Source of the DNA: an uncultured Erysipelotrichaceae bacterium
GTDB taxonomy: Bacteria; Bacillota_I; Bacilli_A; RF39; UBA660
Direction of reading: 5' to 3'
Assembly (NCBI GenBank): GCA_902775285.1
Contig: CACYLI010000007.1
Coordinates: forward strand, 5,533-69,532
Length of the DNA stretch: 64,000 nt
The notes under the pieces were generated by a model that ran no database searches, was not told where the DNA came from, and saw only the letters and a list, made by a program, of their open reading frames with translations. Positions 15,380 through 59,000 of the stretch are shown piece after piece (position 1 is the stretch's first letter; every line of letters starts with the position of its first letter). The translations under genes were made by a program, and so were the position numbers.

Positions 15380-15718
15380 ATGAACTTGATTGATAAGATC
15401 AACAAGAAACAAATTAAACCTGACACTCCTAATTTTCAAGTAGGAGATACTGTTAGAGTTGATGTTAAGATTAAAGAAGGTAAGAGAGAAAGAATTCAAG
15501 CTTTTGAAGGAATAGTAACAGCTCGTAAAGGTGGAAGTGTTTCAGAAACTTTTACTGTTAGAAAGAAAAGTGGAAGCATTGGTATTAACAGAGTTTTCCC
15601 AGTTAATAGTCCATTAATTGATAAAATTACTGTTGTTAAAAAAGGAAAAGTTAGAAGAGCTAAACTTAACTTCTTAAAAGATTTAACAGGAAGTTTTAAA
15701 ATTAAAGAAAGAAATTAG
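15380..15718 (+). CDS. rplS: 50S ribosomal protein L19
   Basis: FQVGDTVRVDVKIKEGKRERIQAFEG is typical of L19. RBS AAGGAGG upstream. Confidence 0.95.
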   Translation: MNLIDKINKKQIKPDTPNFQVGDTVRVDVKIKEGKRERIQAFEGIVTARKGGSVSETFTVRKKSGSIGINRVFPVNSPLIDKITVVKKGKVRRAKLNFLKDLTGSFKIKERN

Positions 15719-15737
15719 GTTTTAAACCTAATTTTTA
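15713..15737 (+). terminator. terminator/attenuating hairpin between rplS and lepB
   Basis: ATTAGGTTT/AAACCTAAT palindrome followed by TTTTT. Confidence 0.5.
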
Positions 15738-15759
15738 TTTATAGAAAGGGTGAAAGTAA

Positions 15760-16251
15760 GTGAAATTTTGGAAAGAAGCAAGAGATTATATAATTATAAT
15801 AGTATCAGTTGTATTAATTAGAACTTTTTTAGTCACACCAGCTATTGTAGATGGAGCTAGTATGGACGATACATTAAAAGATGGAAATCTTGTTATTATC
15901 AATAAAATTGTTTATAAAGTAAGTGATATAAAAAGATTTGATGTAGTAGTTGTATCAAATGAAATTAATAATGATAAAATTATTAAAAGAGTTATTGGCA
16001 TGCCTAATGAAACAGTAGAATATAAGAATAATAAATTATATATTAATGATAAAGAAGTTAAAACTAATATTAAATTTAAAGACACTGAAGATTTTATAAG
16101 AACTACTTCTGATAATGAGTATTTAGTTTTAGGTGATAATAGACCTGTATCTAAAGATAGTAGAGTACTTGGAAATTTCACTAAAGAAGATATTATTGGA
16201 AGGGTTAAAATAAGATTATTTCCTTTTAATAAAATTGGTAAAATTGATTAA
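15760..16251 (+). CDS. lepB: signal peptidase I
   Basis: S26 motifs GASMDDTL (Ser), KRVIGMPNE (Lys) and GDNRPVSKDSR. GTG start with an AAGGGTG RBS. Confidence 0.9.
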   Translation: MKFWKEARDYIIIIVSVVLIRTFLVTPAIVDGASMDDTLKDGNLVIINKIVYKVSDIKRFDVVVVSNEINNDKIIKRVIGMPNETVEYKNNKLYINDKEVKTNIKFKDTEDFIRTTSDNEYLVLGDNRPVSKDSRVLGNFTKEDIIGRVKIRLFPFNKIGKID

Positions 16252-23780: not shown

Positions 23781-26700
23781 ATGGCAGATGTGTATATTCC
23801 AAAAACAGCAGAGGAAAAAGTAGATTTTGTTTATGAATTCATGAAAGAAAATGAAAGCTTTTTTGGTAAGAGTGAATCATATAATGTAAAAGCTATTGAA
23901 ACAGAGGATGGAGTAGGAATAGTTGCTGAGTATAAAAGCCCTAATGGTACAGGAGTTAATTATTTATATATAAATCCCAAAACTGATTTTGAAAATATTA
24001 CAATGTTTGAAAATCCAATACCAGATTCTTGCTATAATGGTGATCGTCTTGTATCTTCTACGCCATATGGTACATATGGTAATAGACACAATAGAATATT
24101 AAAGGGAGATTTTTCAAGTGTTCCAGAAAATGCAATAATGATTCCTTCAAGTAAATATGAAACTGGTACAAGCAAAACAGTGTATAGTCCAGATGAAGTT
24201 GCGGTTGCTTTTATTAATAAAGTAGGAAATAAGCCTGAAATGATTGCCACTGTTGGATGTAGTAATGGTGGAGGTGGGTCTTTAAAATCAGGAATTTTTG
24301 AAGCATTAAATCATCCAGGTGTTAAAGTAGAAGCATGGGGATTAGATGGATATTATCAAGAATTTTATCCAGAAAAAATATTGGATTCTCTTAGTGAAGA
24401 AGAAATGGAAACGCTAAGAGAGAATTTAACTTTTGTAAATGTTATTCCAAATGAAAAATGTCAAGGCGGTATTGCTAATGGAAGGCCAAGATATAATTGG
24501 AAAAATGAACATGAAACAAGTCAAACAATGACAAAATATGTTTTGGAATTAGAAAAAAGAGGAATCAAAAATATTATATATACTGCTGATTTTGAAGGAG
24601 TACATGAAAACTGGCATGGAGCACATTTAGATATGTATCAATTTGGATCTAATTTGCCTGATTTTATGCTTCATAATACAGATGAAATCAAATGTAGTGG
24701 TGAATATGGAGTTATAGATGGAGCTTATACTTATGATGGAATTAGAAGAATATTAGTTCCTCTTGGTGTAAAAGATGATATATCTCAAAAAGTAGATTTT
24801 AGTAATATACCAGATTATTCTAAATCTTATATTAAATATGAAAATGAAATTGAATTATTAAATAATATTAGAGACAATTTAGAAATGTTTTCAAATTCTA
24901 ATATGGAAACAAAAGGAAGTGATAGTTTTCCTGGGATACTATTTAGTATGACTAATGGAGTTTCTTCTTCTAATGATTCATTTATTAGTAAAACAAAAGA
25001 AGAAACTAATGCACTTGCATCTGTAATAGGATCTTATATTATATTAGATAAAGAACTTGCAAGTGATGCTGATAATCTAAAAGATAATTTAGGTACTTCT
25101 TTATTTGACTATAATAGAGTCTCAGTAGAAGGGCCAACTTATACGCCATTAACTTTTTCTAATATAAATGGTGAGATAGATTTTAATGAGTTTAATAATA
25201 TGTTTAATGGTACATCTTTATGTGGACCAATCGCATCTTTTATAGGTGAAAATAAACAAAATATAACATCTTTAAAATCATCTTTAACAGCATTAATTGA
25301 TAGTGAATATTATTCTTCACCTGGGCTTGGTTATATAAAGTCTTCAATTGATAGATATTCTATTCTATGTGATTGTAATTTAGAATTATTAGATAGCATG
25401 GAGTCGTCTTTTACAAAAGCTCTAAAAAAAGTTTATGATGCGATGGATGGAAAGAGTATTGATTTAAGCATAGAAGATGAATTAAACGATAAGATATTAA
25501 AATGTACTCAAGATATAGATAATTTGATTGCCGCTAATAGTGAAAAAAGAACAGTTCTAGTAGCAACTCCAGTTACTATACCTGGAAAACAGATAATAGT
25601 TTATGTTCCTAAAAAAGAATATGTTTTATCAGAGTCAGCAAGAGCTGAAAATGAAAGAATAATTGAATCTAATAGAAAAGATATTGAAGATTTTAAAATA
25701 GAATTACAGAGAATTGCTGATGTAAAAGAAGCAATAAAAGAAGCTGAAGAATTAATGGATGATTTAAATATTGAAATCCAACAATATAATTCTAAAGTAG
25801 AACATTTAACCCCAACACCAACTTTAAGTTTATATGATGTTGAGAGATTAAAACGTGGGGAAAATCTTGGATTTAATCCAACTATATATGATGTAGGAGA
25901 TACTAGTAAACCAGAAATAATAGAAACAAATGAAGAAGAATCAAAAGTAGAGCCTTCTGTAACTCCTTCGCCATCTCCAACCCCAACACCAGCTCCTTCT
26001 CCAAAAGTAGAAGAACCATCGAATGTTTCAGAACCTATAGAAAAAGAGACTGAAAAAACTTCAACATCAAGTACAAGTAGTACAGGTTTTGGAAATGGTT
26101 TCTTAGCAGGATATAAGCCTGGAGAAGGAATGAGTGAAAGTAGAATTCCAACTTCTACTGAAAAAGAAGACACTCCACAAGTAGATATAGGTGATAGAGC
26201 ATCTCATGCATTTAGTGGGCCTGATTTTATAACATCTGCTTCTGGAGTACTTGGTAGTGTAGGTGCTACAGCTATAGGAGAAACTTTAAATAATTCTAAA
26301 AGTCCTCAAACAAAAGCTTCTGATACTGGATTTGGAAATAATTTCTTAGCTGGATCTAAACCTGAAATCACACCAAAAGAAGAAACTATTAGTTCTTCGC
26401 AAGTTGTTGAAACAGAAGAAAAACCACAAGTAGATATAGGTGATAGAGCATCTCACGCATTTAGTGGACCAGATTTTGAAAGTAATGATAATAAATCAAT
26501 ACCTGATTTAATAAAAGATTTATTTCCAACAAAAGATAAAGAAGATACATCAAAAGATAGTAATGATATCGGATTTGGAAACAATTTCTTAGCTGGATCT
26601 AAACCTGAAGTCAAATTAAAAGATGAAATACAAAGACCAGTAGTTGAGACGCAAAGGCCACAAGTAGACATAGGTGATAGAGGCTCACATGCATTTAGTG

Positions 26701-27473
26701 GACCAAATTTTGAAAGAACAGATAAAAAAGATCAAACTACTATTAGTACAGAAAAACCTGTTATTAATGAACCAAATGTTGAAGAAATAAAACCAGTTGT
26801 TACTCCACAGAATGTTATACCAAGTGTTGATAATAATCCACATATAGAAGAAAAGACACCAAGTCAACTAACAGGAAGTGTTCCACAATGGCAACCAACT
26901 CCAACACCACAACAACATGATCCAGTTGTTAAAACACCTGAAGTTGAACCAGAAGTTATCATTGATACACCAACTCCAGAAATTGAACCAGAAGTTATTA
27001 TTGAACCACCAACACCGGAAGTTGAACCTGAAATTATTCCTGAACCAATTATAGAACCAGTGGTTATAGTTGATGAACCAACAATTGATCCAACACCAGA
27101 AGTAATAGTAGATACACCAGTAGTTGAGCCAACTCCAGAAAAAGTACCAGAATCAATACAAACTACTCCAAAAACTCCAACTAAACCTACACCACAAGTT
27201 ACTATTCCTTCAAGCCCAATAATAGAAGAACCAATAACAAGTGATATTAATTATGATAATATAGAAATAATAAATGCAGATAATAGTGTTAAACCAGATT
27301 TAACTAATGAAATAATTAATAATACTTTAGAAGATAAAAAAGAGAATAATTCTAATGTATTAAAAGATATTGGTATTATTGCTGGAGTAGGAGCATTAGC
27401 GGGTGCTAGTGCATATGGAATATATAAAGCAAGCGAAAATAAAAAAGATGAAGATGAAGAAAAGACAGAATAA
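23781..27473 (+). CDS. 1230-aa tail-anchored surface-type protein: alpha/beta-hydrolase-like N-domain, LXG-like helical module, 3 tandem ~81-aa repeats, Pro/Glu-rich stalk, C-terminal TM helix; no signal peptide
   Basis: GCSNGGGG nucleophile elbow and a later WHGAH. SPGLGYIKSSIDRY and SIDLSIEDELNDKILKCTQDIDNLI align with the paralogues. Repeats carry GFGNxFLAG and PQVDIGDRxSHAFSGPxF. TPEVEPEVII-type stalk, then IGIIAGVGALAGASAYGIY followed by a charged tail. Confidence 0.75.
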   Translation: MADVYIPKTAEEKVDFVYEFMKENESFFGKSESYNVKAIETEDGVGIVAEYKSPNGTGVNYLYINPKTDFENITMFENPIPDSCYNGDRLVSSTPYGTYGNRHNRILKGDFSSVPENAIMIPSSKYETGTSKTVYSPDEVAVAFINKVGNKPEMIATVGCSNGGGGSLKSGIFEALNHPGVKVEAWGLDGYYQEFYPEKILDSLSEEEMETLRENLTFVNVIPNEKCQGGIANGRPRYNWKNEHETSQTMTKYVLELEKRGIKNIIYTADFEGVHENWHGAHLDMYQFGSNLPDFMLHNTDEIKCSGEYGVIDGAYTYDGIRRILVPLGVKDDISQKVDFSNIPDYSKSYIKYENEIELLNNIRDNLEMFSNSNMETKGSDSFPGILFSMTNGVSSSNDSFISKTKEETNALASVIGSYIILDKELASDADNLKDNLGTSLFDYNRVSVEGPTYTPLTFSNINGEIDFNEFNNMFNGTSLCGPIASFIGENKQNITSLKSSLTALIDSEYYSSPGLGYIKSSIDRYSILCDCNLELLDSMESSFTKALKKVYDAMDGKSIDLSIEDELNDKILKCTQDIDNLIAANSEKRTVLVATPVTIPGKQIIVYVPKKEYVLSESARAENERIIESNRKDIEDFKIELQRIADVKEAIKEAEELMDDLNIEIQQYNSKVEHLTPTPTLSLYDVERLKRGENLGFNPTIYDVGDTSKPEIIETNEEESKVEPSVTPSPSPTPTPAPSPKVEEPSNVSEPIEKETEKTSTSSTSSTGFGNGFLAGYKPGEGMSESRIPTSTEKEDTPQVDIGDRASHAFSGPDFITSASGVLGSVGATAIGETLNNSKSPQTKASDTGFGNNFLAGSKPEITPKEETISSSQVVETEEKPQVDIGDRASHAFSGPDFESNDNKSIPDLIKDLFPTKDKEDTSKDSNDIGFGNNFLAGSKPEVKLKDEIQRPVVETQRPQVDIGDRGSHAFSGPNFERTDKKDQTTISTEKPVINEPNVEEIKPVVTPQNVIPSVDNNPHIEEKTPSQLTGSVPQWQPTPTPQQHDPVVKTPEVEPEVIIDTPTPEIEPEVIIEPPTPEVEPEIIPEPIIEPVVIVDEPTIDPTPEVIVDTPVVEPTPEKVPESIQTTPKTPTKPTPQVTIPSSPIIEEPITSDINYDNIEIINADNSVKPDLTNEIINNTLEDKKENNSNVLKDIGIIAGVGALAGASAYGIYKASENKKDEDEEKTE
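26085..26711 (+). repeat. three in-frame tandem ~243-bp (~81-aa) repeats inside the 1230-aa gene
   Basis: GGxTTTGGAAAyrrTTTCTTAGC starts at 26085, 26328 and 26571. CCACAAGTAGAyATAGGTGATAGAG starts at 26175, 26424 and 26658. Confidence 0.85.
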
Positions 27474-27485: not shown

Positions 27486-27545
27486 ATTAATTTGAAATAC
27501 AGTAGATTTTTTAATATAATATTTAATGTAAAAGAGGTGATATTA

Positions 27546-28799
27546 TTGAAAAATTGGAGTTTTAAAATTGATAATGATAAATCAATAAATTTAGTTCTAA
27601 ATGGTAAAAAAAATGCTTATTCTTTAAATTATAATGAAAAAGAAATTCCTCAAATTAATGAAGAATCAATAATACACTTTGATAATGAAAAAGATGCTTG
27701 TAAAATTAAAATAATTGATTATAAAATACTAAAGTTTAAAGATGTTACTTTAGATGAAGCTTTATTAGAAGGATATTCATCTTTAGATATATGGAAAAAG
27801 AAATATTTAGATTTATTTAAGAAAACTAATTCTAGTTTTAATGAAGAAAATATAATAATATTTGTTATATTTAAAGTTACAAATAATTTTGTTAAAGAAA
27901 GACTTGAATTAGGGAAAAAAATAGCTAATTTGAATTTAGATTTATTTAATAAAATCGAATCACTTTATGAAATAAATGCTGGATTTAATAATACACTTTT
28001 TAGTGTTAATAATAAATATATTATAAAAGTATGTACTAATACTGAATTAGAGATTAGTTTTGAAAAAGAATATAATTTTTATAAATCAAATTCTTCTAAT
28101 AAAAGTATTCCAAAATTATATAAATATGATAATACTAAAAAAGAAGTGAATTATTTATATGAAATAATTGAAAAACTAAATGGTAATACTTTATATTATT
28201 ATTGGTATAAAATGAATGAAATAGAAAGAGAAGAAACCATTAAAAAACTAATTTCTATAATTAAAAGTTTTCATAATATAAAAGCAAATGAATATGATTG
28301 GGCAAAAGTAATAAAAGAAGAAATACAAAAAAGAATAAAAGACAATAAAGATTTATTTAGTGATGAAGATTATGATATCATAATTAAAAGTCTTAATAAA
28401 TATGATGAAATCTTAAAAGATAATTATTTTGCTTTAATACATAATGATTTACATTTTGATAATATTATTTATGATAATGGAAATATAAAAATAATAGATT
28501 TTAATGATTGTTTAAGTGCCCCAATTGATTTTGAATTTAGACAATTGTATATTTGTCAGTATAAACCATGGAAATGGGCTAATATAGAAATGGATCCTTA
28601 TCAAAAAGAAAAAGATTATAAAAATATTTGGAATTATATTAAAAAGTATTATGATAAATTGAATGATATAAACTATTTAGAAGAAAGAATGATTATATAT
28701 AGAATCTGGAATGATTCAGAGCATTTAAAAAAATACCATTCTAAGGAATTAATAGATAGTGTAGTTGAGAATTCTAAAAAAATATTGGAGTTGAAATGA
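27546..28799 (+). CDS. ASCH domain fused to an aminoglycoside/choline-kinase-like phosphotransferase (APH fold)
   Basis: N-terminal LVLNGKKNAY...FKDVTLDEALLEGYSSLDIWKK is ASCH-like. C-terminal LIHNDLHFDNIIYDNGNIKIIDFND is the APH catalytic loop. A TTG at 27546 follows AAAGAGGTGA and is preferred over the track's TTG at 27492. Confidence 0.7.
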   Translation: MKNWSFKIDNDKSINLVLNGKKNAYSLNYNEKEIPQINEESIIHFDNEKDACKIKIIDYKILKFKDVTLDEALLEGYSSLDIWKKKYLDLFKKTNSSFNEENIIIFVIFKVTNNFVKERLELGKKIANLNLDLFNKIESLYEINAGFNNTLFSVNNKYIIKVCTNTELEISFEKEYNFYKSNSSNKSIPKLYKYDNTKKEVNYLYEIIEKLNGNTLYYYWYKMNEIEREETIKKLISIIKSFHNIKANEYDWAKVIKEEIQKRIKDNKDLFSDEDYDIIIKSLNKYDEILKDNYFALIHNDLHFDNIIYDNGNIKIIDFNDCLSAPIDFEFRQLYICQYKPWKWANIEMDPYQKEKDYKNIWNYIKKYYDKLNDINYLEERMIIYRIWNDSEHLKKYHSKELIDSVVENSKKILELK

Positions 28800-30984: not shown

Positions 30985-31389
30985 ATGGACAATAATAGTT
31001 TTATTTATGGTAAGATTCCAACATCTAGTGGAGGAATAAGCAAAACATATCCTGAAAGTATAATAAGACTTATTAGTGAAAATGAAGAAAGACATAATCA
31101 TATAATTTCATATTCTTTATCTAATTATGATAATATTAGAGAAAAATTATACTTAGAAAAGAGTACTAATAATATAGTACTTGAAAGTAAGAGAAATGAT
31201 AATGATTCTTATAAAGAATTAGTTGTTTTAAGTGTTTTTCCATATGGTGGTGTTTCATCTCATGGATATGAATATTTTAGTTATTTAATTGAAGTAATTG
31301 AAAAAGACACTTTATATAGACATTTAAAAGATGAAAGAATGATTATTGAACGAGAATTACAAAATGAACAAAAATTAAGATTAAAGTAG
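30985..31389 (+). CDS. hypothetical protein
   Basis: 134-aa ORF with a GGAGGG RBS, 8 nt after copA, followed by a strong terminator. No family recognised. Confidence 0.5.
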   Translation: MDNNSFIYGKIPTSSGGISKTYPESIIRLISENEERHNHIISYSLSNYDNIREKLYLEKSTNNIVLESKRNDNDSYKELVVLSVFPYGGVSSHGYEYFSYLIEVIEKDTLYRHLKDERMIIERELQNEQKLRLK

Positions 31390-31411
31390 ATTTACTTCTA
31401 CTTTTTTTTTA
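31384..31411 (+). terminator. terminator after the copA operon
   Basis: AAGTAGA-TTTACT-TCTACTT followed by a T8 run. Confidence 0.7.
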
Positions 31412-31442
31412 AAATGAAATAGATGCTATTAAGATAATCATA

Positions 31443-31451
31443 TGATATAAT
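31443..31451 (+). promoter_or_regulatory. extended -10 element (TGaTATAAT) driving a truncated 24-codon gene stub
   Basis: TGATATAAT is followed by an AGAGG RBS and ATG 31467. Confidence 0.4.
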
Positions 31452-31466
31452 CAATACAGAGGTTAT

Positions 31467-31541
31467 ATGAAAAAAGTAGTTGTTGGAATCATAAGCATTT
31501 TATTAGTAGGAACTTTGGGATTTGACATCTTGCACATTTAG
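31467..31541 (+). pseudogene. decapitated 5' stub of a secreted/lipoprotein-type gene (MKKVVVGIISILLVGTLG...), 24 codons
   Basis: A promoter, RBS, ATG and signal-peptide-like sequence end in a stop inside copy A of the repeated leader element. Confidence 0.4.
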
Positions 31542-31670
31542 TATAAAAATATGTTAAAATTGATAAAAATTAGTAAAAAATGACTATTTTTAATGCAAAA
31601 AGTGATAGGAATTATTAAGGTGATTACGCCACCTAATAATAAGAAATAACTTGAATATTGAGGTGATAGT
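31513..31670 (+). repeat. copy A of a ~140-150-bp promoter/leader element (upstream of the ARH gene)
   Basis: Aligns with 32508-32648. Shared blocks: TTTGAMATCTTGCAC, TATAAAAATATGYTAAAA, AAAAAGYGATAGGAATTAKTAAGGTGATTACGCMACCTAATAATAAGAAA and ATTGAGGTGA. Contains a conserved TGnTAAAAT (31552-60). Confidence 0.7.
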
Positions 31671-32435
31671 ATGTATGGGGCTATAGTTGGAGATTTAGCG
31701 GGTAGTATATATGAATTTGACCAATTAAAAAAAGTTCATAGAGTACATATGAATAATTTAATTGAAGATAATGCTTTCTATAGTGATGATACAATTTTAA
31801 CTATTGCTATACTGGATGCGATACTTAATAATAAAGATTATGATTATTATTTACGAAAATATATTCAAGGATATAGTGAGTATAAACCTGATTTTAATCC
31901 GTATTTTAAATCATCATTTTCACCTAACTTGATAAAATGGAGCAAATCAAATGTAATTGGTACTAGTCACGGTAATGGAGCTATGATGAGAATATCTCCT
32001 GTAGGATATATGTTTGATAGTGAAAAAGAAGTAATCGAAAATGCAAGGCTTGCAACTATACCTTCTCATAATTCAAATGAAGCAATTGATTCAGCTACTA
32101 TGGTGGCATTAATAATATATTATTCTAGAAAGGGATATACAAAAGATGAAATATTTAAAATAATGAATATTGAGGTTAAGTATATTCCGTTTAATAAGTT
32201 TAATACAACATGTGAAGAAACTATAGGAAATTGTTTATATGCATTATATAATTCAAATAGTTTTGAAGATGCTATTAGAAAAACATTATTGATGGGTGGA
32301 GATACAGATACAAACTGTGCTATAGTTGGAAGTATGGCTGAAGCAATGTATCGAATTAATAATGAAACCATAGAAAAAGTTAATAAAAAAATTCCTCAAA
32401 AATTTGTTAAAATATTAAGTAGAGCAAGGAGTTGA
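31671..32435 (+). CDS. ADP-ribosylglycohydrolase (ARH/DraG family)
   Basis: MYGAIVGDLAGSIYEF N-terminus, SDDT, GNGAMMR and GGDTDTNCAIVG metal-binding motifs. Confidence 0.85.
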   Translation: MYGAIVGDLAGSIYEFDQLKKVHRVHMNNLIEDNAFYSDDTILTIAILDAILNNKDYDYYLRKYIQGYSEYKPDFNPYFKSSFSPNLIKWSKSNVIGTSHGNGAMMRISPVGYMFDSEKEVIENARLATIPSHNSNEAIDSATMVALIIYYSRKGYTKDEIFKIMNIEVKYIPFNKFNTTCEETIGNCLYALYNSNSFEDAIRKTLLMGGDTDTNCAIVGSMAEAMYRINNETIEKVNKKIPQKFVKILSRARS

Positions 32436-32440
32436 TCCAA

Positions 32441-32469
32441 ATGAATGAGAATAAAACTAATATAAACTG
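32441..32469 (+). pseudogene. 29-nt duplicate of the rbgA 5' end (MNENKTNIN...), heading a 24-codon stub
   Basis: ATGAATGAGAATAAAACTAATATAAACTG compared with rbgA 33221-33249 ATGAACGAAAATAAAACTAATATAAACTG is identical at 27 of 29 positions. Both differences are synonymous. Similarity ends abruptly after nt 29. Confidence 0.7.
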
Positions 32470-32507
32470 TCTGATAACGCTTTTTGCAACACTTTCTAAA
32501 AATAAGG

Positions 32508-32648
32508 CTTTGTGAGATTTGAAATCTTGCACGTTTAATATAAAAATATGCTAAAATAAACAAAAAAATAGATGTTATTAATGTAAAAAGCGATAGGAAT
32601 TAGTAAGGTGATTACGCAACCTAATAATAAGAAAATTGAGGTGAAATA
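32508..32648 (+). repeat. copy B of the promoter/leader element (upstream of the transglutaminase-like gene)
   Basis: See copy A. The conserved TGnTAAAAT is at 32549-57. Confidence 0.7.
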
Positions 32649-33215
32649 ATGAATGATATTAAAACACCAAAAGAATTATTAGACTATATGTCAAATAATA
32701 TTAATTACGGATATTTAGGAAAAAATGGAAGAGTATATCATTATGATGATTTAGATTTTAACTTAGATTGGTATGAACAATATATATTAGAAACAAGTGA
32801 TGATATATTAAATAATTTATGTGGTAATTGCTGGGATCAAGTTGAATTTGAAAGAGATTGGTTTTTAAAAAATGGATATGAAATAAAAACTATTTATGAA
32901 ATGGTTAAACTTGATTATGATAATGTATATCCAACTCATTCCTTTCTTATTTATAAGGATAATAATCACTGGTTTTGGTTTGAAAATTCTGATTTTAATA
33001 ATAGAGGCATACATAAATTTAATTCATTTGATGAATTATTAAATTATCAATATAAAAAGTATGTTGAATTTTTAAAGACATTTAATATAACAGATGAAGA
33101 ATTAGAAAAAATAATTGTAACAGAGTTTGATAAACCAAAAGAACATATTTCTGCTGAGAAATATTTAAATCATGTTATTAATTCACAACAAATTAATAAA
33201 AAACAGAGGAGGTAA
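32649..33215 (+). CDS. hypothetical transglutaminase/papain-like-fold protein (Cys-His-Asp/Asn candidate triad)
   Basis: 188 aa. CGNCWDQVEFERDWF (Cys), THSFLIY (His) and WFENSD in the order expected for a transglutaminase-like cysteine hydrolase. The fold assignment is an inference. Confidence 0.5.
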   Translation: MNDIKTPKELLDYMSNNINYGYLGKNGRVYHYDDLDFNLDWYEQYILETSDDILNNLCGNCWDQVEFERDWFLKNGYEIKTIYEMVKLDYDNVYPTHSFLIYKDNNHWFWFENSDFNNRGIHKFNSFDELLNYQYKKYVEFLKTFNITDEELEKIIVTEFDKPKEHISAEKYLNHVINSQQINKKQRR

Positions 33216-33220
33216 TACTT

Positions 33221-34078
33221 ATGAACGAAAATAAAACTAATATAAACTGGTATCCAGGTCATATGGCTAAGACTAAAAGAGAAATATCATCTATTATTTC
33301 TAATATAGATATTGTAATAGAAGTAATAGATTCAAGAATACCTTTTTCGTCTAGAATACCAGATTTAAAGAAAATAACTAATAACAAAACAAATATAATA
33401 GTATTTAATAAGTATGATTTATGTGATAAAAATGAAACTAATAAGTGGATTATTAAGTATAAAAACGAAGGAAATATAGTAGTAACTACTGATTCTAAAA
33501 ATACAAATGATTATAAAAAGATTATTAGTGAAGTTAATAATATAATGATTAATGTTAATAATAAAAGAAAATCCAAAGGACTTTTACCTAAGAAAGCAAA
33601 ATGTATTGTTATAGGTGTACCAAATGCTGGAAAAAGTACTATTATAAATAGACTTGTTGGAAAAAGTGTACTTGGTGTTGGTAACAAACCAGGAGTTACA
33701 AAACAATTAAACACAATTAGAATAAATGAATATATGGATTTAGTAGATACTCCTGGAATATTATGGCCTAAATTTGATAATCAAACTCTTGCATTAAATC
33801 TTGCTAGTATGACTGCTATTAAAGAAGAGATTCTCTCAATAGAAACAATTGCTATTCATATACTAAAAACTCTAAGTAAATATTATAGTGATATTTTAGA
33901 AAAGAATTTTGGAATAAAAGAATATAGTGATGATAATATTGAAGATTGTTTTGATCAAATATCTAAATTTAAAAATATACCTATTAGAGGAGAAGTTGAT
34001 TATGAAAGAGTATCTCTTTTAATAGTTAATTCTATTAAACAAGAAAAAATAAAGGGTATAACATTTGATAGATTATGA
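33221..34078 (+). CDS. rbgA: ribosome biogenesis GTPase A (YlqF/RbgA), circularly permuted GTPase
   Basis: NWYPGHMAKTKREI. G4 (NKYDL) precedes G1 (GVPNAGKST) and G3 (DTPG). Confidence 0.92.
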   Translation: MNENKTNINWYPGHMAKTKREISSIISNIDIVIEVIDSRIPFSSRIPDLKKITNNKTNIIVFNKYDLCDKNETNKWIIKYKNEGNIVVTTDSKNTNDYKKIISEVNNIMINVNNKRKSKGLLPKKAKCIVIGVPNAGKSTIINRLVGKSVLGVGNKPGVTKQLNTIRINEYMDLVDTPGILWPKFDNQTLALNLASMTAIKEEILSIETIAIHILKTLSKYYSDILEKNFGIKEYSDDNIEDCFDQISKFKNIPIRGEVDYERVSLLIVNSIKQEKIKGITFDRL

Positions 34079-45861: not shown

Positions 45862-45950
45862 GTTTGTAGAAATCTTTCTCTACAACCGCATCTTATTTAG
45901 GTCAAAAATAAAGATTAATCTTTTACCTAATAGAGCGAGTCTTTTTGAAG
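45862..45950 (+). ncRNA. rplU 5' leader (L21-leader-like structured element)
   Basis: About 100-nt leader with a GTAGA-N8-TCTAC hairpin between the promoter and the RBS. L21 leaders are known upstream of rplU in Firmicutes. Not verified by covariance model. Confidence 0.4.
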
Positions 45951-45960
45951 GAGGAATATA

Positions 45961-46906: not shown

Positions 46907-47587
46907 ATGAAAAATATAAAAAAACTTTTATTATTATTAATAATACTTTTAATACCAATATTTATAAGTGCTAAAACAGATACATATGAGAGTTCTGTAA
47001 GTAAAGCAAACCAATATATATTTAATAGTGTATTTGAAAGTAGAAGTAAATATTTGTATTATGATAATCCATTATATGGAGTAGATAATAGTGGAAATGT
47101 AATGACATCTCTTGGATATACAACTGGAGGAATGCTAAATGCATATGAATATGAAGTGAGCTTGAAAAATGGATTTAGTTATTTAGTAATACCTAATAAG
47201 TTTTGGACAATGAGCATAAGTGATAATAATTTACCTTATTATTTAGATGGAAAAGGAATTGCACTAAATAATCCATGGGAATTTGTGAATGCAAATTATG
47301 CAATACTTACAACAAGTGATATAAATTTAGGTTATTTTTGTAGTGATAATAATGAATGTAGTGGAGGAAATAGAAAAGCAAGAGAAGAAAAAGTAATAAA
47401 TAGTGATAAAAGTGTAACATTTGATATCTTTGTAAAGAAAGGATATGAAAATGATACAAGTGATGGATGTAAACTTATTAAAGTTAGTTCAACACCATTT
47501 ACATCTACTGAAAAAACAACATATAAAATAGAAAATATTAATGGAGATTATAATTGTGTAGTTAAATTAAAGCAAAAACATACATGA
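46907..47587 (+). CDS. secreted protein with FWTMS module; possibly the detached N-terminal part of the downstream repeat protein
   Basis: Signal peptide KKLLLLLIILLIPIFISAKT and an FWTMSISDNN motif as in the 38803 protein. AGGTG lies 6 nt before ATG 46907. The stop overlaps the next start (ATGA). Confidence 0.6.
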   Translation: MKNIKKLLLLLIILLIPIFISAKTDTYESSVSKANQYIFNSVFESRSKYLYYDNPLYGVDNSGNVMTSLGYTTGGMLNAYEYEVSLKNGFSYLVIPNKFWTMSISDNNLPYYLDGKGIALNNPWEFVNANYAILTTSDINLGYFCSDNNECSGGNRKAREEKVINSDKSVTFDIFVKKGYENDTSDGCKLIKVSSTPFTSTEKTTYKIENINGDYNCVVKLKQKHT

Positions 47588-49311
47588 TAACATATAATAA
47601 AAATACAACAGATACTGTAAGTAATATGCCAGTAAATCAATCAAAAACACATGGAACAAATATTACATTAAGTAATAGTACACCAACTAGAACAGGATAT
47701 ACATTTGATGGATGGTATGAATATTCTAGTTGTACTGGAACAATGTATTCTCAAGGTGGAAATTATACAAATAATTCTAATGTAACTTTATATGCAAAAT
47801 GGAAAATAAATTCACATGTTATAACATTTAATGCTAATGGTGGAAAATTTAGTAATGGAACAGATACATTTAAAATAACACAAAATTATGGTACGTCTAT
47901 TACAAAACCCGCAGATCCAACAAGAATAGGACATACATTTAAAGGTTGGGATAAAGAAGTACCTTCAACAATGCCAGATCAAGATATAACTATAACAGCA
48001 AAAGAATGGCAAATAAATCAATATACAATAACATTTGATACAAAAGGTGGAAGTACAATATCACCAATAACACAAAACTATGGTACCTCTATTACAAAAC
48101 CTGCAAATCCAACAAAAACAGGTTATACATTTGCTGGATGGGATAAAACAATACCATCAACTATGCCAGCTCAAAGCATGACAATAACTGCAAAAAATTG
48201 GACTCCAAAAACAGTAAAAGTAACATTTAATAGAAATACAAGTTCAAGTGATACGACAACTTTAAGTCAAACATTTACATATGCAGCATCAGGAAATAAA
48301 TTTGGATATAATACTAATGGAAATCCAACATGGGCTCAAACAGGACAATTTGGTGGATGGGATAGAACAGGTTATAAATTACTTGGTTGGTCAACTGATA
48401 AAAATGCTACTACAGCAACATATAGTGTATATTCTGGAGTTAATGATAGTTGGATTAACTCAAATTCTCCATCAGTTACATTGTATGCTATATGGCAAAT
48501 AAATCAATATACAATAACATTTGATACAAAAGGTGGAAGTACAATATCACCAATAACACAAAACTATGGTACATCTATTACAAAACCTGCAAATCCAACA
48601 AAAACAGGGTATACATTTACAGGATGGGATAAAACAATACCATCAACTATGCCAGCTCAAAGCATGACAGTAATTGCTCAATGGAAAATAATTGATAAAC
48701 CTGTGTATATCTATTATAATCCAAATAGTGGAACTGTTGGAGGAACATATAAAACATATAATGGTTGGGTATCAAGCAATGGTTCAAGTTATTTTAGACA
48801 GACAGTACAAAAAGGAGATTCAACTGATTTATATAATTATGAAACATTTTCAATTACTAGAAGTGGATATAAAGTATATGGAGGTAATGAGTGGTGTATT
48901 AATATAAGTTCTCAACCAACATGTTTTAATCAAGATACAAAATATACTTATAATGATTATAAAAGTTTTGCAACTGAAAAAACTGATCATTACGAATTAA
49001 ATTTATACCTTAATTGGCAACAATTAGTCACATGTTGTTGGTATGATAGTATAAAACATGGTGGAGCTGGTTGTGGTGGAACTGATCAAAAATGGGTTAG
49101 AGATGGTTCAAATGCTTTCTGCTACTGGTATAATCAAACATCTTGTCCTGCAAATTGGGCTCCACTCGAAACACAGGGGTGTTATAATTTCTTCGAACAT
49201 CAATATGCTCCAATTACAGGCGGTGATGGAGGTAAATGTAAATGTATACTATATAAAGTAATTACCGGTGTTGGTCGAATTTGCGATGGATGTGATTGTG
49301 TTCCATGTTAA
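47584..49311 (+). CDS. Listeria-Bacteroides (Flg_new-type) repeat protein with Cys-rich C-terminal domain; no signal peptide of its own
   Basis: At least 5 repeats of the type T(R/K)xGYTFxGW...MPxxxxT(I/L)xAxW. The last ~95 aa contain 13 Cys (CCWYD...CGG...CDGCDCVPC). Confidence 0.75.
   Translation: MITYNKNTTDTVSNMPVNQSKTHGTNITLSNSTPTRTGYTFDGWYEYSSCTGTMYSQGGNYTNNSNVTLYAKWKINSHVITFNANGGKFSNGTDTFKITQNYGTSITKPADPTRIGHTFKGWDKEVPSTMPDQDITITAKEWQINQYTITFDTKGGSTISPITQNYGTSITKPANPTKTGYTFAGWDKTIPSTMPAQSMTITAKNWTPKTVKVTFNRNTSSSDTTTLSQTFTYAASGNKFGYNTNGNPTWAQTGQFGGWDRTGYKLLGWSTDKNATTATYSVYSGVNDSWINSNSPSVTLYAIWQINQYTITFDTKGGSTISPITQNYGTSITKPANPTKTGYTFTGWDKTIPSTMPAQSMTVIAQWKIIDKPVYIYYNPNSGTVGGTYKTYNGWVSSNGSSYFRQTVQKGDSTDLYNYETFSITRSGYKVYGGNEWCINISSQPTCFNQDTKYTYNDYKSFATEKTDHYELNLYLNWQQLVTCCWYDSIKHGGAGCGGTDQKWVRDGSNAFCYWYNQTSCPANWAPLETQGCYNFFEHQYAPITGGDGGKCKCILYKVITGVGRICDGCDCVPC
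48007..48191 (+). repeat. copy 1 of a near-identical 185-bp intragenic direct repeat (Flg_new repeat unit)
   Basis: Matches 48493-48677 with 6 mismatches by my count. The offset of 486 bp equals 162 codons. Confidence 0.85.
48493..48677 (+). repeat. copy 2 of the 185-bp intragenic direct repeat
   Basis: See copy 1. Confidence 0.85.
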
Positions 49312-58397: not shown

Positions 58398-59000
58398 ATG
58401 AAAGAATATGAAAATGAATTATATAGTAAAGGAATTAAATATATAGCAGGAATTGATGAAGTGGGTAGAGGTCCTTTAGTTGGCCCAGTTGTGACATGTG
58501 CAGTTATTTTACCAATTGATTTTTACGATGAAAGAATAAATGATTCTAAAAAATTAAGTGAGAAAAAAAGAGAATTATTATATGATGTTATTATGGAAAA
58601 TGCTATAAGTGTTGGAATTGGAATGTCTAGTGAAGAAGTAATTGATGAAATAAACATTTTAGAAGCAACTAAGAAAGCTATGTTAGAAGCAATTGATAAT
58701 CTAAGTGTTAAACCAGAACATTTATTAATTGATGCTGTTAAATTAGATACATCTATTCCACAGACTTCTATTATTAAAGGAGACCAAAAAAGTTTAAGTA
58801 TTGCATCTGCATCTATTATAGCTAAAGTTACAAGAGATAGAATGATGATAGAACTTGATAAAAAGCATCCCGAATATGATTTTATTCATAATAAAGGATA
58901 TGGAACAAAAAAACACATAGAAGCTTTATATAAATATGGAGCATTAAAAGAACATAGAAAAACATTTGAACCAGTTTCTAGTATTATAAATAATAATTAG
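58398..59000 (+). CDS. rnhB: ribonuclease HII
   Basis: [23 protein letters not shown] and [10 protein letters not shown] motifs. Confidence 0.93.

Follow-up and report, generated by a model that had tools for sequence, protein, structure and literature searches.

The stretch analysed here, hereafter the window, comprises 64,000 nucleotides (64 kb) of contig CACYLI010000007.1 (positions 5,533 to 69,532 of its forward strand) from an uncultured Erysipelotrichaceae bacterium (assembly GCA_902775285.1) and contains, in front of the essential gene rbgA (ylqF), two accessory genes, each behind a copy of the same promoter/leader segment. The first gene encodes an ADP-ribosylglycohydrolase (ARH) and the second a protein of 188 amino acids (aa) with a predicted transglutaminase/papain-like fold. 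The region between positions 31516 and 33249 is very probably a two-cassette array of a site-specific system whose attachment site is the 5′ end of rbgA; the transglutaminase-fold gene belongs to a complete cassette of 780 bp, and the ARH gene to one that is truncated on the left. On the wider reading, held with a probability of roughly 0.7 overall, this array is one small case, lacking a recombinase, of a cassette system that is widespread, anchored in rbgA and apparently not yet described. The parts of the array are as follows.

31467–31541, + strand: stub A, a 24-codon open reading frame (ORF) that begins like a signal peptide and bounds the array on the left
31516–31670, + strand: 5′ expression module of the ARH cassette, with the ATCTTGCA block and its −35/−10-like hexamers, a leader and a ribosome-binding site (RBS); delimited from the window alignment and repeats and from the ARH cassettes of loci L001 and L056
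31522–31550, + strand: promoter-like site of the ARH cassette, TTGACA, 17 nt, AAAAAT, with the TGTTAAAAT motif immediately 3′
31596–31646, + strand: leader block A (AAAAAGTGATAGGAATTATTAAGGTGATTACGCCACCTAATAATAAGAAA), with a Shine–Dalgarno (SD)-like AAGGTG and an anti-SD-like CACCT inside
31671–32435, + strand: cargo gene 1, the ARH gene (PF03747); its TGA stop falls within the conserved L half-site AGGAGTTGA
32427–32469, + strand: L half-site ending the ARH cassette, made of RBS, MNENKTNIN codons and TG; core at 32450; the start of “stub B” in the first-pass annotation
32470–33249, + strand: complete cassette, TG to TG, 780 bp, with R half-site, expression module, cargo gene 2 and L half-site
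32470–32512, + strand: R half-site of the second cassette, TCTGATAACGCTTTTTGCAACAC type, then a degenerate CTTATAAAATAAGG-like block
32513–32648, + strand: 5′ expression module of the second cassette, with TTGAAA, 17 nt, AAAAAT at 32519–32547, leader block and RBS ATTGAGGTGA
32649–33215, + strand: cargo gene 2, 188 aa, transglutaminase/papain-like predicted fold
33207–33249, + strand: L half-site of the second cassette, fused to rbgA; core at 33230; TG at 33248–33249
33221–34078, + strand: rbgA (ylqF), the anchor gene (TIGR03596 YlqF, 304 bits)

The homology between the two promoter/leader segments, on which the first-pass annotation had centred, is borne out by an alignment of 31516–31670 with 32513–32648 at 82% mean column identity with two indels, and both copies contain TGTTAAAAT and TGCTAAAAT. 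Even with three mismatches permitted, the 64 kb contain just two occurrences of the 18-nt leader core AAGGTGATTACGCNACCT, against 0.02 expected. The duplicate of the rbgA start was likewise recovered as described, with 27 of 29 nt identical from the ATG and both changes synonymous (AAT/AAC and GAG/GAA). The repeat extends over 43 nt, with copies at 32427–32469 and 33207–33249 (84% identity, copy spacing 780 bp), and, therefore, begins at the AGGAG RBS rather than at the ATG. Both stubs are 24-codon ORFs (31467–31541 and, from its ATG, 32442–32515), the three downstream genes had been named correctly, and the reported lack of a recombinase holds throughout the window.

The ARH cassette is regarded as truncated on the left because the usual preceding R half-site is missing. 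The present RBS and codons 1–10 of rbgA come from the L half-site of the second cassette. Moreover, the gap between the stop codon of cargo gene 2 and the start of rbgA amounts to 5 nt and, thus, rbgA would be transcribed from the cassette promoters.

Junctions and the cassette boundary

The system was reached through the genomic contexts of homologs of the 188-aa protein, which are runs of small same-strand accessory genes; in one of them, locus L007, the run ends at rbgA–rnhB. A repeat search in this locus found that each unit ends with AAAGGAGTTGATCCAAATGAATGAAAATAAAACTAATATAAAYTGG, that is, the RBS and the first ten rbgA codons, and continues with TTGATnnn..., and the final copy runs on as the real rbgA (TATCCAGGTCATATGG). 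Since every L007 unit ends in this way, “stub B” of the window is one case of a recurring junction, and the recurring unit is this junction (RBS, ten rbgA codons and then about 110 nt) and not the 140-bp promoter/leader element that had been taken as the defining repeat. The same array holds a cut-down second copy of the transglutaminase-fold gene in another cassette position (L007:2634–2954 against L007:6043–6209, in pieces 81–96% identical), which indicates decay and duplication of cassettes within arrays.

An exact-pattern scan for the cassette-type junction, with one genome per species, matched at least 119 stretches from at least 89 assemblies, nearly all of them rumen or gut metagenome-assembled genomes (MAGs) titled Bacilli, Erysipelotrichaceae, Tenericutes or similar. 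When three mismatches were permitted, 121 loci among the matches listed yielded 325 junctions of the cassette type and 24 of the rbgA type, spaced by a median of 932 bp. Further copies in other genomes, on whose existence the idea of mobility had been made to depend, are thus found by the hundred. The largest array among the matches listed has 16 junctions in 16 kb, on the adjacent blocks L017 and L020 of one contig. Of 228 cassettes, 223 have their longest ORF on the same strand as rbgA; the ORF starts a median of 191 nt past the junction core and ends a median of 24 nt ahead of the next core, and the 25th percentile of the latter distance (14 nt) equals the distance from the TGA of AGGAGTTGA, as in the ARH gene of the window.

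Clustering of the 228 cargo proteins gave 136 families, of which 91 have a single member. Among the families that recur are several of GNAT acetyltransferases, besides peptidase S51, RhuM, NUDIX, HD, methyltransferase and NADAR proteins, PnuC-type transporters, histidine phosphatases, and HAD, radical SAM and queuosine salvage proteins; MazG proteins and many of unknown function are also part of the cargo. Among the matches listed, no adjacent pair of families is repeated in two loci, one family of seven members has six different followers, and a search of the protein-family arrays for A–C–B versus A–B cassette triplets returned none. The TCTGATAACGCTTTTTGCAACAC-type R half-site of the window is also present in L016, L091, L102, L107 and L110, in each case ahead of different genes.

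A cassette is the DNA between successive TGs of the sequence ...AATATAAAYTG|G, in which the TG is part of the codon for a conserved tryptophan (Trp-10; AAY TGG) that opens the WYPGHM motif of RbgA. The order of its parts is an R half-site of about 25–45 nt (GTTGATnACnATTTA and its variants), in most cases a positioned promoter-like block and a 5′ leader some 100 nt long, one ORF directed toward rbgA, and an L half-site composed of an RBS, an ATG and about nine codons. The information content of the junction is high from about −24 (AAAGGAG) to about +45 (GTTGATnACnATTTAnTC), as counted from the junction core, with more conserved blocks at about +55–70 (CTTATAAAATAAGG) and +85–110. Junction pairs that have a common downstream cassette and different upstream ones are identical from +20, the base after the TG, and where the upstream cassette is the common one the identity reaches to about +10. 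Between the window and L056, the final 140 nt of the ARH cassette (L half-site included) agree at 133 of 140 positions; in L056 the end of this cassette joins rbgA directly at the TG, whereas in the window the 780-bp cassette lies exactly between the two. Since the ARH/rbgA break between L056 and the window and the linkage of shared cassettes both fall there, the boundary is placed at the TG of the RbgA Trp codon, and the crossover dinucleotide at the end of the ARH cassette would be the TG at 32468–32469. On the rbgA side, the L056 comparison and the recurrence of the same junction as the bound of hundreds of cassettes elsewhere uphold the earlier proposal that cassettes were inserted serially at a resident gene's 5′ end, with the target start regenerated. 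Across 289 cassette junctions, dyad symmetry reaches its maximum at T|G, which scored highest of the 20 centres tried with complementarity at 8.47 of 16 positions; rbgA-type junctions have no dyad peak at T|G.

Excision and integration would thus take place with cleavage at the TG. Integration at this dinucleotide would set the L half-site of the incoming cassette ahead of the remaining rbgA, so that the essential gene would keep an RBS and an N-terminus, and the earlier L half-site would stay behind as a short stub ORF. As the fused site again resembles the target, more cassettes could be added and the arrays could grow. Transcription of rbgA would be maintained by the promoter carried by each cassette, the lack of a terminator and the uniform orientation, and the rationale for these three features may be that an essential gene must stay transcribed and translated after each insertion. 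The short MNENKTNINW... ORFs and the variable RbgA N-termini annotated in these genomes are footprints of the system, not genes.

Candidate recombinase and rival mechanisms

Judged from gene content and site sequence, the enzyme is most likely a large serine recombinase module, with two full-length genes and a short resolvase-domain gene, acting in trans; a serine-recombinase mechanism at the TG is considered probable, with less assurance than the array itself. Such a recombinase would cut the central TG of an imperfectly palindromic site and is the best-supported enzyme because of its association with the site and the geometry of the latter. Viral contigs were scanned with the cassette-specific pattern, which gave no match, and with a looser core pattern, which gave three, one of them locus L132. 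This locus has three tandem serine recombinase genes (155, 550 and 544 aa); the two long proteins consist of Resolvase, Recombinase and Zn_ribbon_recom domains, and the short one of a Resolvase domain only. On the 3′ side of these genes lie a variant L half-site (MEKSNNNEKLTKVGINW), then a near-perfect, TG-centred palindrome of 26 bp (GTCGGAATTAAC-TG-GTAAGTTCCGAC) and then three GNAT cassettes with typical junctions.

A metagenome search with the 544-aa L132 protein led to 52 loci. In at least 10 metagenome loci (L134–L137, L139, L140, L142, L145, L177, L178 and L182) a recombinase gene stands directly upstream of rbgA and nothing but the L half-site separates the two; these relatives of the last L132 recombinase are 99% identical to it in L134 and 63–70% identical in most of the others. 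A recombinase with Resolvase, Recombinase and Zn-ribbon domains is also found beside the site in L132 and L133, and none exists in the 64-kb window. Searches with the L132 proteins (tblastn) detected homologs in the array loci L024, L025, L088, L091 and L094, in two of which (L025 and L091) they come after the last visible cassette. The left ends of the recombinase elements in L178 and L182 are at ...AACTG|GTAAG..., and left ends adjoin a window-type MNENKTNINW L half-site in L145, L179, L182 and L024. Among solved structures, the recombinase comes nearest to the N-terminal domain of TnpX (E = 4e-31); its match to DUF4368 is below threshold (24.3 versus 25 bits), and its scores of 75–119 bits on the CcrA, CcrB and CcrC models, with cut-offs of 700–900, place it in the same superfamily and not among the equivalogs. 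Because its genome segment has no recombinase gene, the window array is regarded as a passive remnant at present.

Larger islands with the same TG bounds occur at L178:264–8532 and L182:3551–11060, where genes for RhuM-like, Bro-N, OLD-family ATPase/TOPRIM nuclease, acyltransferase and truncated serine recombinase proteins are found; the site therefore gathers defence-like islands besides single-gene cassettes.

Several observations weigh against a serine-recombinase cassette system of this form. The recombinase is tied to the site only by its position, most array loci (8-kb blocks) have no recombinase, and the window has none within 64 kb. The recombinase-bearing elements carry a variant L half-site and their ends are unlike those of the small cassettes, and a cassette site that includes the target's own left half differs from the textbook attP × attB arrangement of large serine recombinases. 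No circular cassette, same-species empty site or other direct sign of movement was seen; a look-up of the exact RbgA of the window returned only the same arrangement and, thus, provided no within-species variant for comparison. Moreover, sigma-70 consensus scores at the conserved promoter-like block of the cassettes are no better than those of control segments in this AT-rich DNA, and promoter function is consequently deduced from the conserved position and sequence of the block.

The left end of the window array does not fit the model either. The stub A ORF has a promoter-like site of its own, an RBS and the signal-peptide-like start, and runs into the ARH expression module; its region is without the junction core motif and is not an rbgA-type junction, and blastn found no relative of it among about 180 fetched loci. 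For these reasons, the insertion into a second resident gene that the first-pass annotation had assumed at this end is unverified, and stub A may equally be a rearranged left end of the array.

A further difficulty lies in the core itself. Positions +11, +14 and +17, which are the third codon positions of the Asn-Ile-Asn codons to the left of the TG (32461/32464/32467 and 33241/33244/33247 in the window), are polymorphic across junctions from L009 to L127. Among junction pairs with an identity of 97% or more over the 70 nt upstream, 26–53% differ at each of the three positions, and +14 and +17 differ also in 24–59% of pairs with the same downstream cassette; the variants are all synonymous for the RbgA N-terminus, even in stubs detached from rbgA. 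Such lack of linkage to both flanks is not predicted by a clean 2-bp serine crossover and would be better fitted by an overlap of 7–9 bp. It is, therefore, the main argument for either frequent short conversion among L half-sites or a rival mechanism, in which the same cassette array would be moved by a tyrosine recombinase encoded elsewhere, with exchange at the ends of a 7–9-bp overlap (about ATMAAYTG), as in streptococcal integrative and conjugative elements (ICEs). Positions −10 to +10 follow the left cassette and those from +20 onward the right one, as overlap heteroduplex would have it, and streptococcal ICEs with tyrosine integrases do target the 5′ end of rbgA with the protein N-terminus kept (PMC4701971). 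However, a tyrosine-recombinase motif was present in only two of 1354 ORFs of at least 150 aa, by a regular-expression search that is a weak test; neither ORF belongs to the window or to any array locus, and both are in metagenome loci derived from the large serine recombinase search, about 10 kb from the site. Moreover, the recombinases physically beside the site are exclusively serine recombinases and the dyad is centred at the TG, so that this alternative is held to be unlikely.

Still less probable is that no dedicated site-specific system exists, that the window pattern arose through local tandem duplication or homologous recombination between conserved flanks (the leader on the 5′ side and the rbgA start on the 3′ side) and that the other arrays result from ordinary recombination among repeats. 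The junctions do offer near-identical repeats of 45–135 bp, which could sustain homologous exchange, and the linkage to the left cassette declines gradually from −30 to +14. However, the right boundary is sharp at a single nucleotide across hundreds of junctions, the elements that carry a recombinase also end at this TG and have a palindromic site there, the cargo families are unrelated and never keep their neighbours, R half-sites, leaders and genes are mosaic, and homologous recombination cannot account for the gain of both half-sites by unrelated genes.

Expression module and cargo

In the cassette reading, the repeated 140-bp promoter/leader is read as an interchangeable expression module of the cassettes, not as a specific riboswitch. 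It is an optional module, since the ARH cassette of L056 has neither promoter nor leader and has 45 nt from TG to ATG; a minority of junctions are similarly short. The ATCTTGCA block stands at a fixed offset of +85 to +89 in 152 of 289 junctions and, in the window, lies within the spacer of TTGACA, 17 nt, AAAAAT, the best site of the promoter scan (10/12); it would act as the promoter. The leader hairpin block was found in 20 of 288 junctions, ahead of at least 15 different genes that include ARH, MazG-like, HD-type, HAD-type, kinase-like and membrane proteins and proteins of unknown function.

No Rfam family matched the element at the gathering threshold (whole window), nor credibly at E ≤ 10 (31380–33300), where the sole overlap is SAM-II at 32508–32564, the copy-B promoter block (16 bits, E = 9.3). 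For the 17 leader copies, RNAalifold gives a consensus of −4.05 kcal/mol with a 4-bp hairpin (GGUG-AUUA-CGCC) and a pairing of ACCU with the AGGU of the RBS, and compensatory change was seen in none of the eight consensus pairs, in sequences too alike to give power; the imperfect leader hairpin described earlier is thus without statistical support. A modest translational role of the SD-like/anti-SD-like pair is possible but unsupported.

The remaining idea of the first-pass annotation, that the element serves mainly as a cis-regulatory RNA (riboswitch or attenuator) or as an operator common to a functionally linked ARH and cysteine-hydrolase pair, may draw on the high conservation of the leader, whose SD-like AAGGUG and anti-SD-like CACCU could pair with each other or with the true RBS as the proposed fold implies, but it is the most improbable of the alternatives given the weak fold of the leader, the lack of Rfam matches and compensatory pairs, the unrelated genes behind the leader, the L056 ARH gene without it and the occurrence of ARH and hydrolase genes as independent cassettes elsewhere. 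No functional tie between the two proteins was found, their cassettes having different neighbours in other genomes, and in L004 the hydrolase gene is not cassette-borne.

Other recurrent leader types occur at L132:700–960, L091:6290–6600 and, on the reverse strand, L025 1350–1590, from which it follows that the cassette leaders fall into a small number of families. One of them translates as ...RVLACNMPTH(F/L)IFIKRGE and is placed ahead of GNAT and uracil-DNA-glycosylase-like genes.

Regarding the cargo of the window, the ARH protein matches PF03747 (E = 6e-34) and also phrog_6572. The 188-aa protein has no match in Pfam, NCBIfam or PHROG, and a sequence search against the PDB was uninformative; its 273 homologs are from uncultured MAGs titled “Bacilli bacterium”, and Cys61 and His97 are invariant across 25 of them. 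An AlphaFold2 (AF2) model (pLDDT 93) has as its best structural match in the PDB the CPR-C4 cysteine protease (TM score 0.57), followed by arylamine N-acetyltransferases and PNGase. The transglutaminase/papain-like fold guessed from the sequence is, thus, supported by the matches of the predicted structure and by the invariant Cys61 and His97.

Known systems and the surroundings of the array

Integrons are the textbook system for the capture, storage and expression of gene cassettes. The rbgA arrays resemble them, and in particular sedentary chromosomal integrons and attC clusters that have no integron-integrase (CALIN), in their many small, mostly single-ORF, co-oriented cassettes, in a recurring site, in diverse and shuffled cargo, in a recombinase that acts in trans (as proposed here) and in the existence of arrays with no recombinase nearby. 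However, no IntI-type tyrosine recombinase was found at the rbgA arrays by the regular-expression search, and the rbgA junctions conserve sequence whereas attC sites conserve structure: the folding of eight 101-nt single-stranded DNA strands from four cassette junctions was not attC-like (z = −1.0 to +1.8 versus shuffles). Moreover, most rbgA cassettes carry a promoter-like block of their own, whereas integron cassettes rely on Pc, and the rbgA acceptor site lies inside an essential gene whose start is rebuilt by each cassette. Complete integrons have been reported as absent from genomes of Firmicutes and Tenericutes (PMC4889954).

By analogy, the rbgA system would work most like a staphylococcal cassette chromosome (SCC) element. 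SCC and SCCmec elements encode large serine recombinases from tandem genes (CcrAB/CcrC) and integrate in the end of a conserved, ribosome-related housekeeping gene that is left intact; direct repeats with the gene end mark each boundary, and tandem composites include recombinase-less elements that are mobilised in trans. Tandem serine recombinases, a rebuilt end of a housekeeping gene, boundary repeats and recombinase-less tandem units are common to both systems. They differ in the end that is used (the 5′ end of rbgA versus the 3′ end of rlmH, or orfX), in the size of the units (one-gene units of about 0.9 kb versus 20–60 kb), in arrays that reach at least 16 units at rbgA and in recombinases that score far below the Ccr equivalog cut-offs (105–119 bits against 900). 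The rbgA cassette system is, thus, an analogue of integrons and of SCC elements and a member of neither.

The clostridial TnpX/TndX transposons (Tn4451 and Tn5397) are comparable in their recombinase, TnpX being the closest solved relative with the same set of domains and a crossover inferred at a central dinucleotide; these transposons are autonomous and several kilobases long, have a single recombinase gene and are not known to form cassette arrays. A further comparison is with streptococcal ICEs and integrative and mobilizable elements (IMEs) and with the build-up, at a single att site, of elements that lack a recombinase. The same target gene and the same end of it as in the rbgA cassettes are used by these ICEs and IMEs, which insert in the 5′ end of rbgA with preservation of the RbgA N-terminus and have direct repeats that reach into the upstream intergenic region (PMC4701971). 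In contrast to the cassettes, these ICEs are large conjugative elements with tyrosine integrases, and no single-gene cassette arrays are described for them; the same survey reports triplets of serine integrases that target mutT, traG and hsdM and disrupt these genes (PMC4701971). As for ICE/IME traits in the rbgA cassettes, these have a single cargo gene and no tyrosine integrase was found; for conjugation genes no systematic search was made. The literature searched contained no account of arrays like these or of a serine recombinase that targets rbgA/ylqF, and the arrays seem to be undescribed so far.

The chances are slightly better than even that small-genome, uncultured Bacilli of the gut and rumen have a functional counterpart of integrons based on large serine recombinases, in which promoter-bearing single-gene cassettes would be captured serially at the TG of rbgA codon 10, each of them providing a new RBS and N-terminus, so that a shuffled and expressed gene bank would result in a phylum without integrons. 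If confirmed, this would be an independently evolved cassette system based on serine chemistry and on double-stranded, sequence-specific sites instead of folded attC sites, with a different expression logic in which each cassette has its own promoter and an essential gene anchors the end of the array. It would also explain a large share of the strain-level gene variation in abundant uncultured rumen and gut Bacilli and offer a catalogue of small accessory families, more than 130 in number and probably under selection, among them acetyltransferases, nucleotide-modifying enzymes and enzymes that act in ADP-ribose metabolism. Furthermore, it would provide new pairs of large serine recombinases and att sites that tolerate serial integration, which would be of interest for genome engineering.

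The surroundings of the array contain several features of their own. An AT-rich hairpin (AGTAGA-TTTACT-TCTACT) followed by nine T lies at 31384–31410, directly 3′ of a 134-aa ORF that comes after copA. It resembles an intrinsic terminator and would insulate the array from the copA operon; the terminator scan did not call it, its G–C pairs being too few. Just 5′ of copA, positions 27492–28799 encode a fused ASCH and aminoglycoside-phosphotransferase-like protein, and ASCH domains are also often encoded beside cassettes in relatives (L001 and L007).

In the window, rplS–lepB (15380–16251), rbgA (33221–34078) and rnhB (58398–59000) are spaced 17 kb and 24 kb apart, whereas rbgA and rnhB are adjacent in L007, and rplS, ylqF and rnhB stand together in B. 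subtilis; the rbgA neighbourhood thus appears to be rearranged in this genome. The sole Rfam family of the window at the gathering threshold is the ribosomal protein L21 leader (RF00559, 42.8 bits) at 45874–45952. Finally, in-frame tandem and dispersed repeats with units of 243, 39 and 186 nt occur at 26078–27118 and 47814–48677, within the genes of two large putative surface proteins (23781–27473 and 47584–49311).

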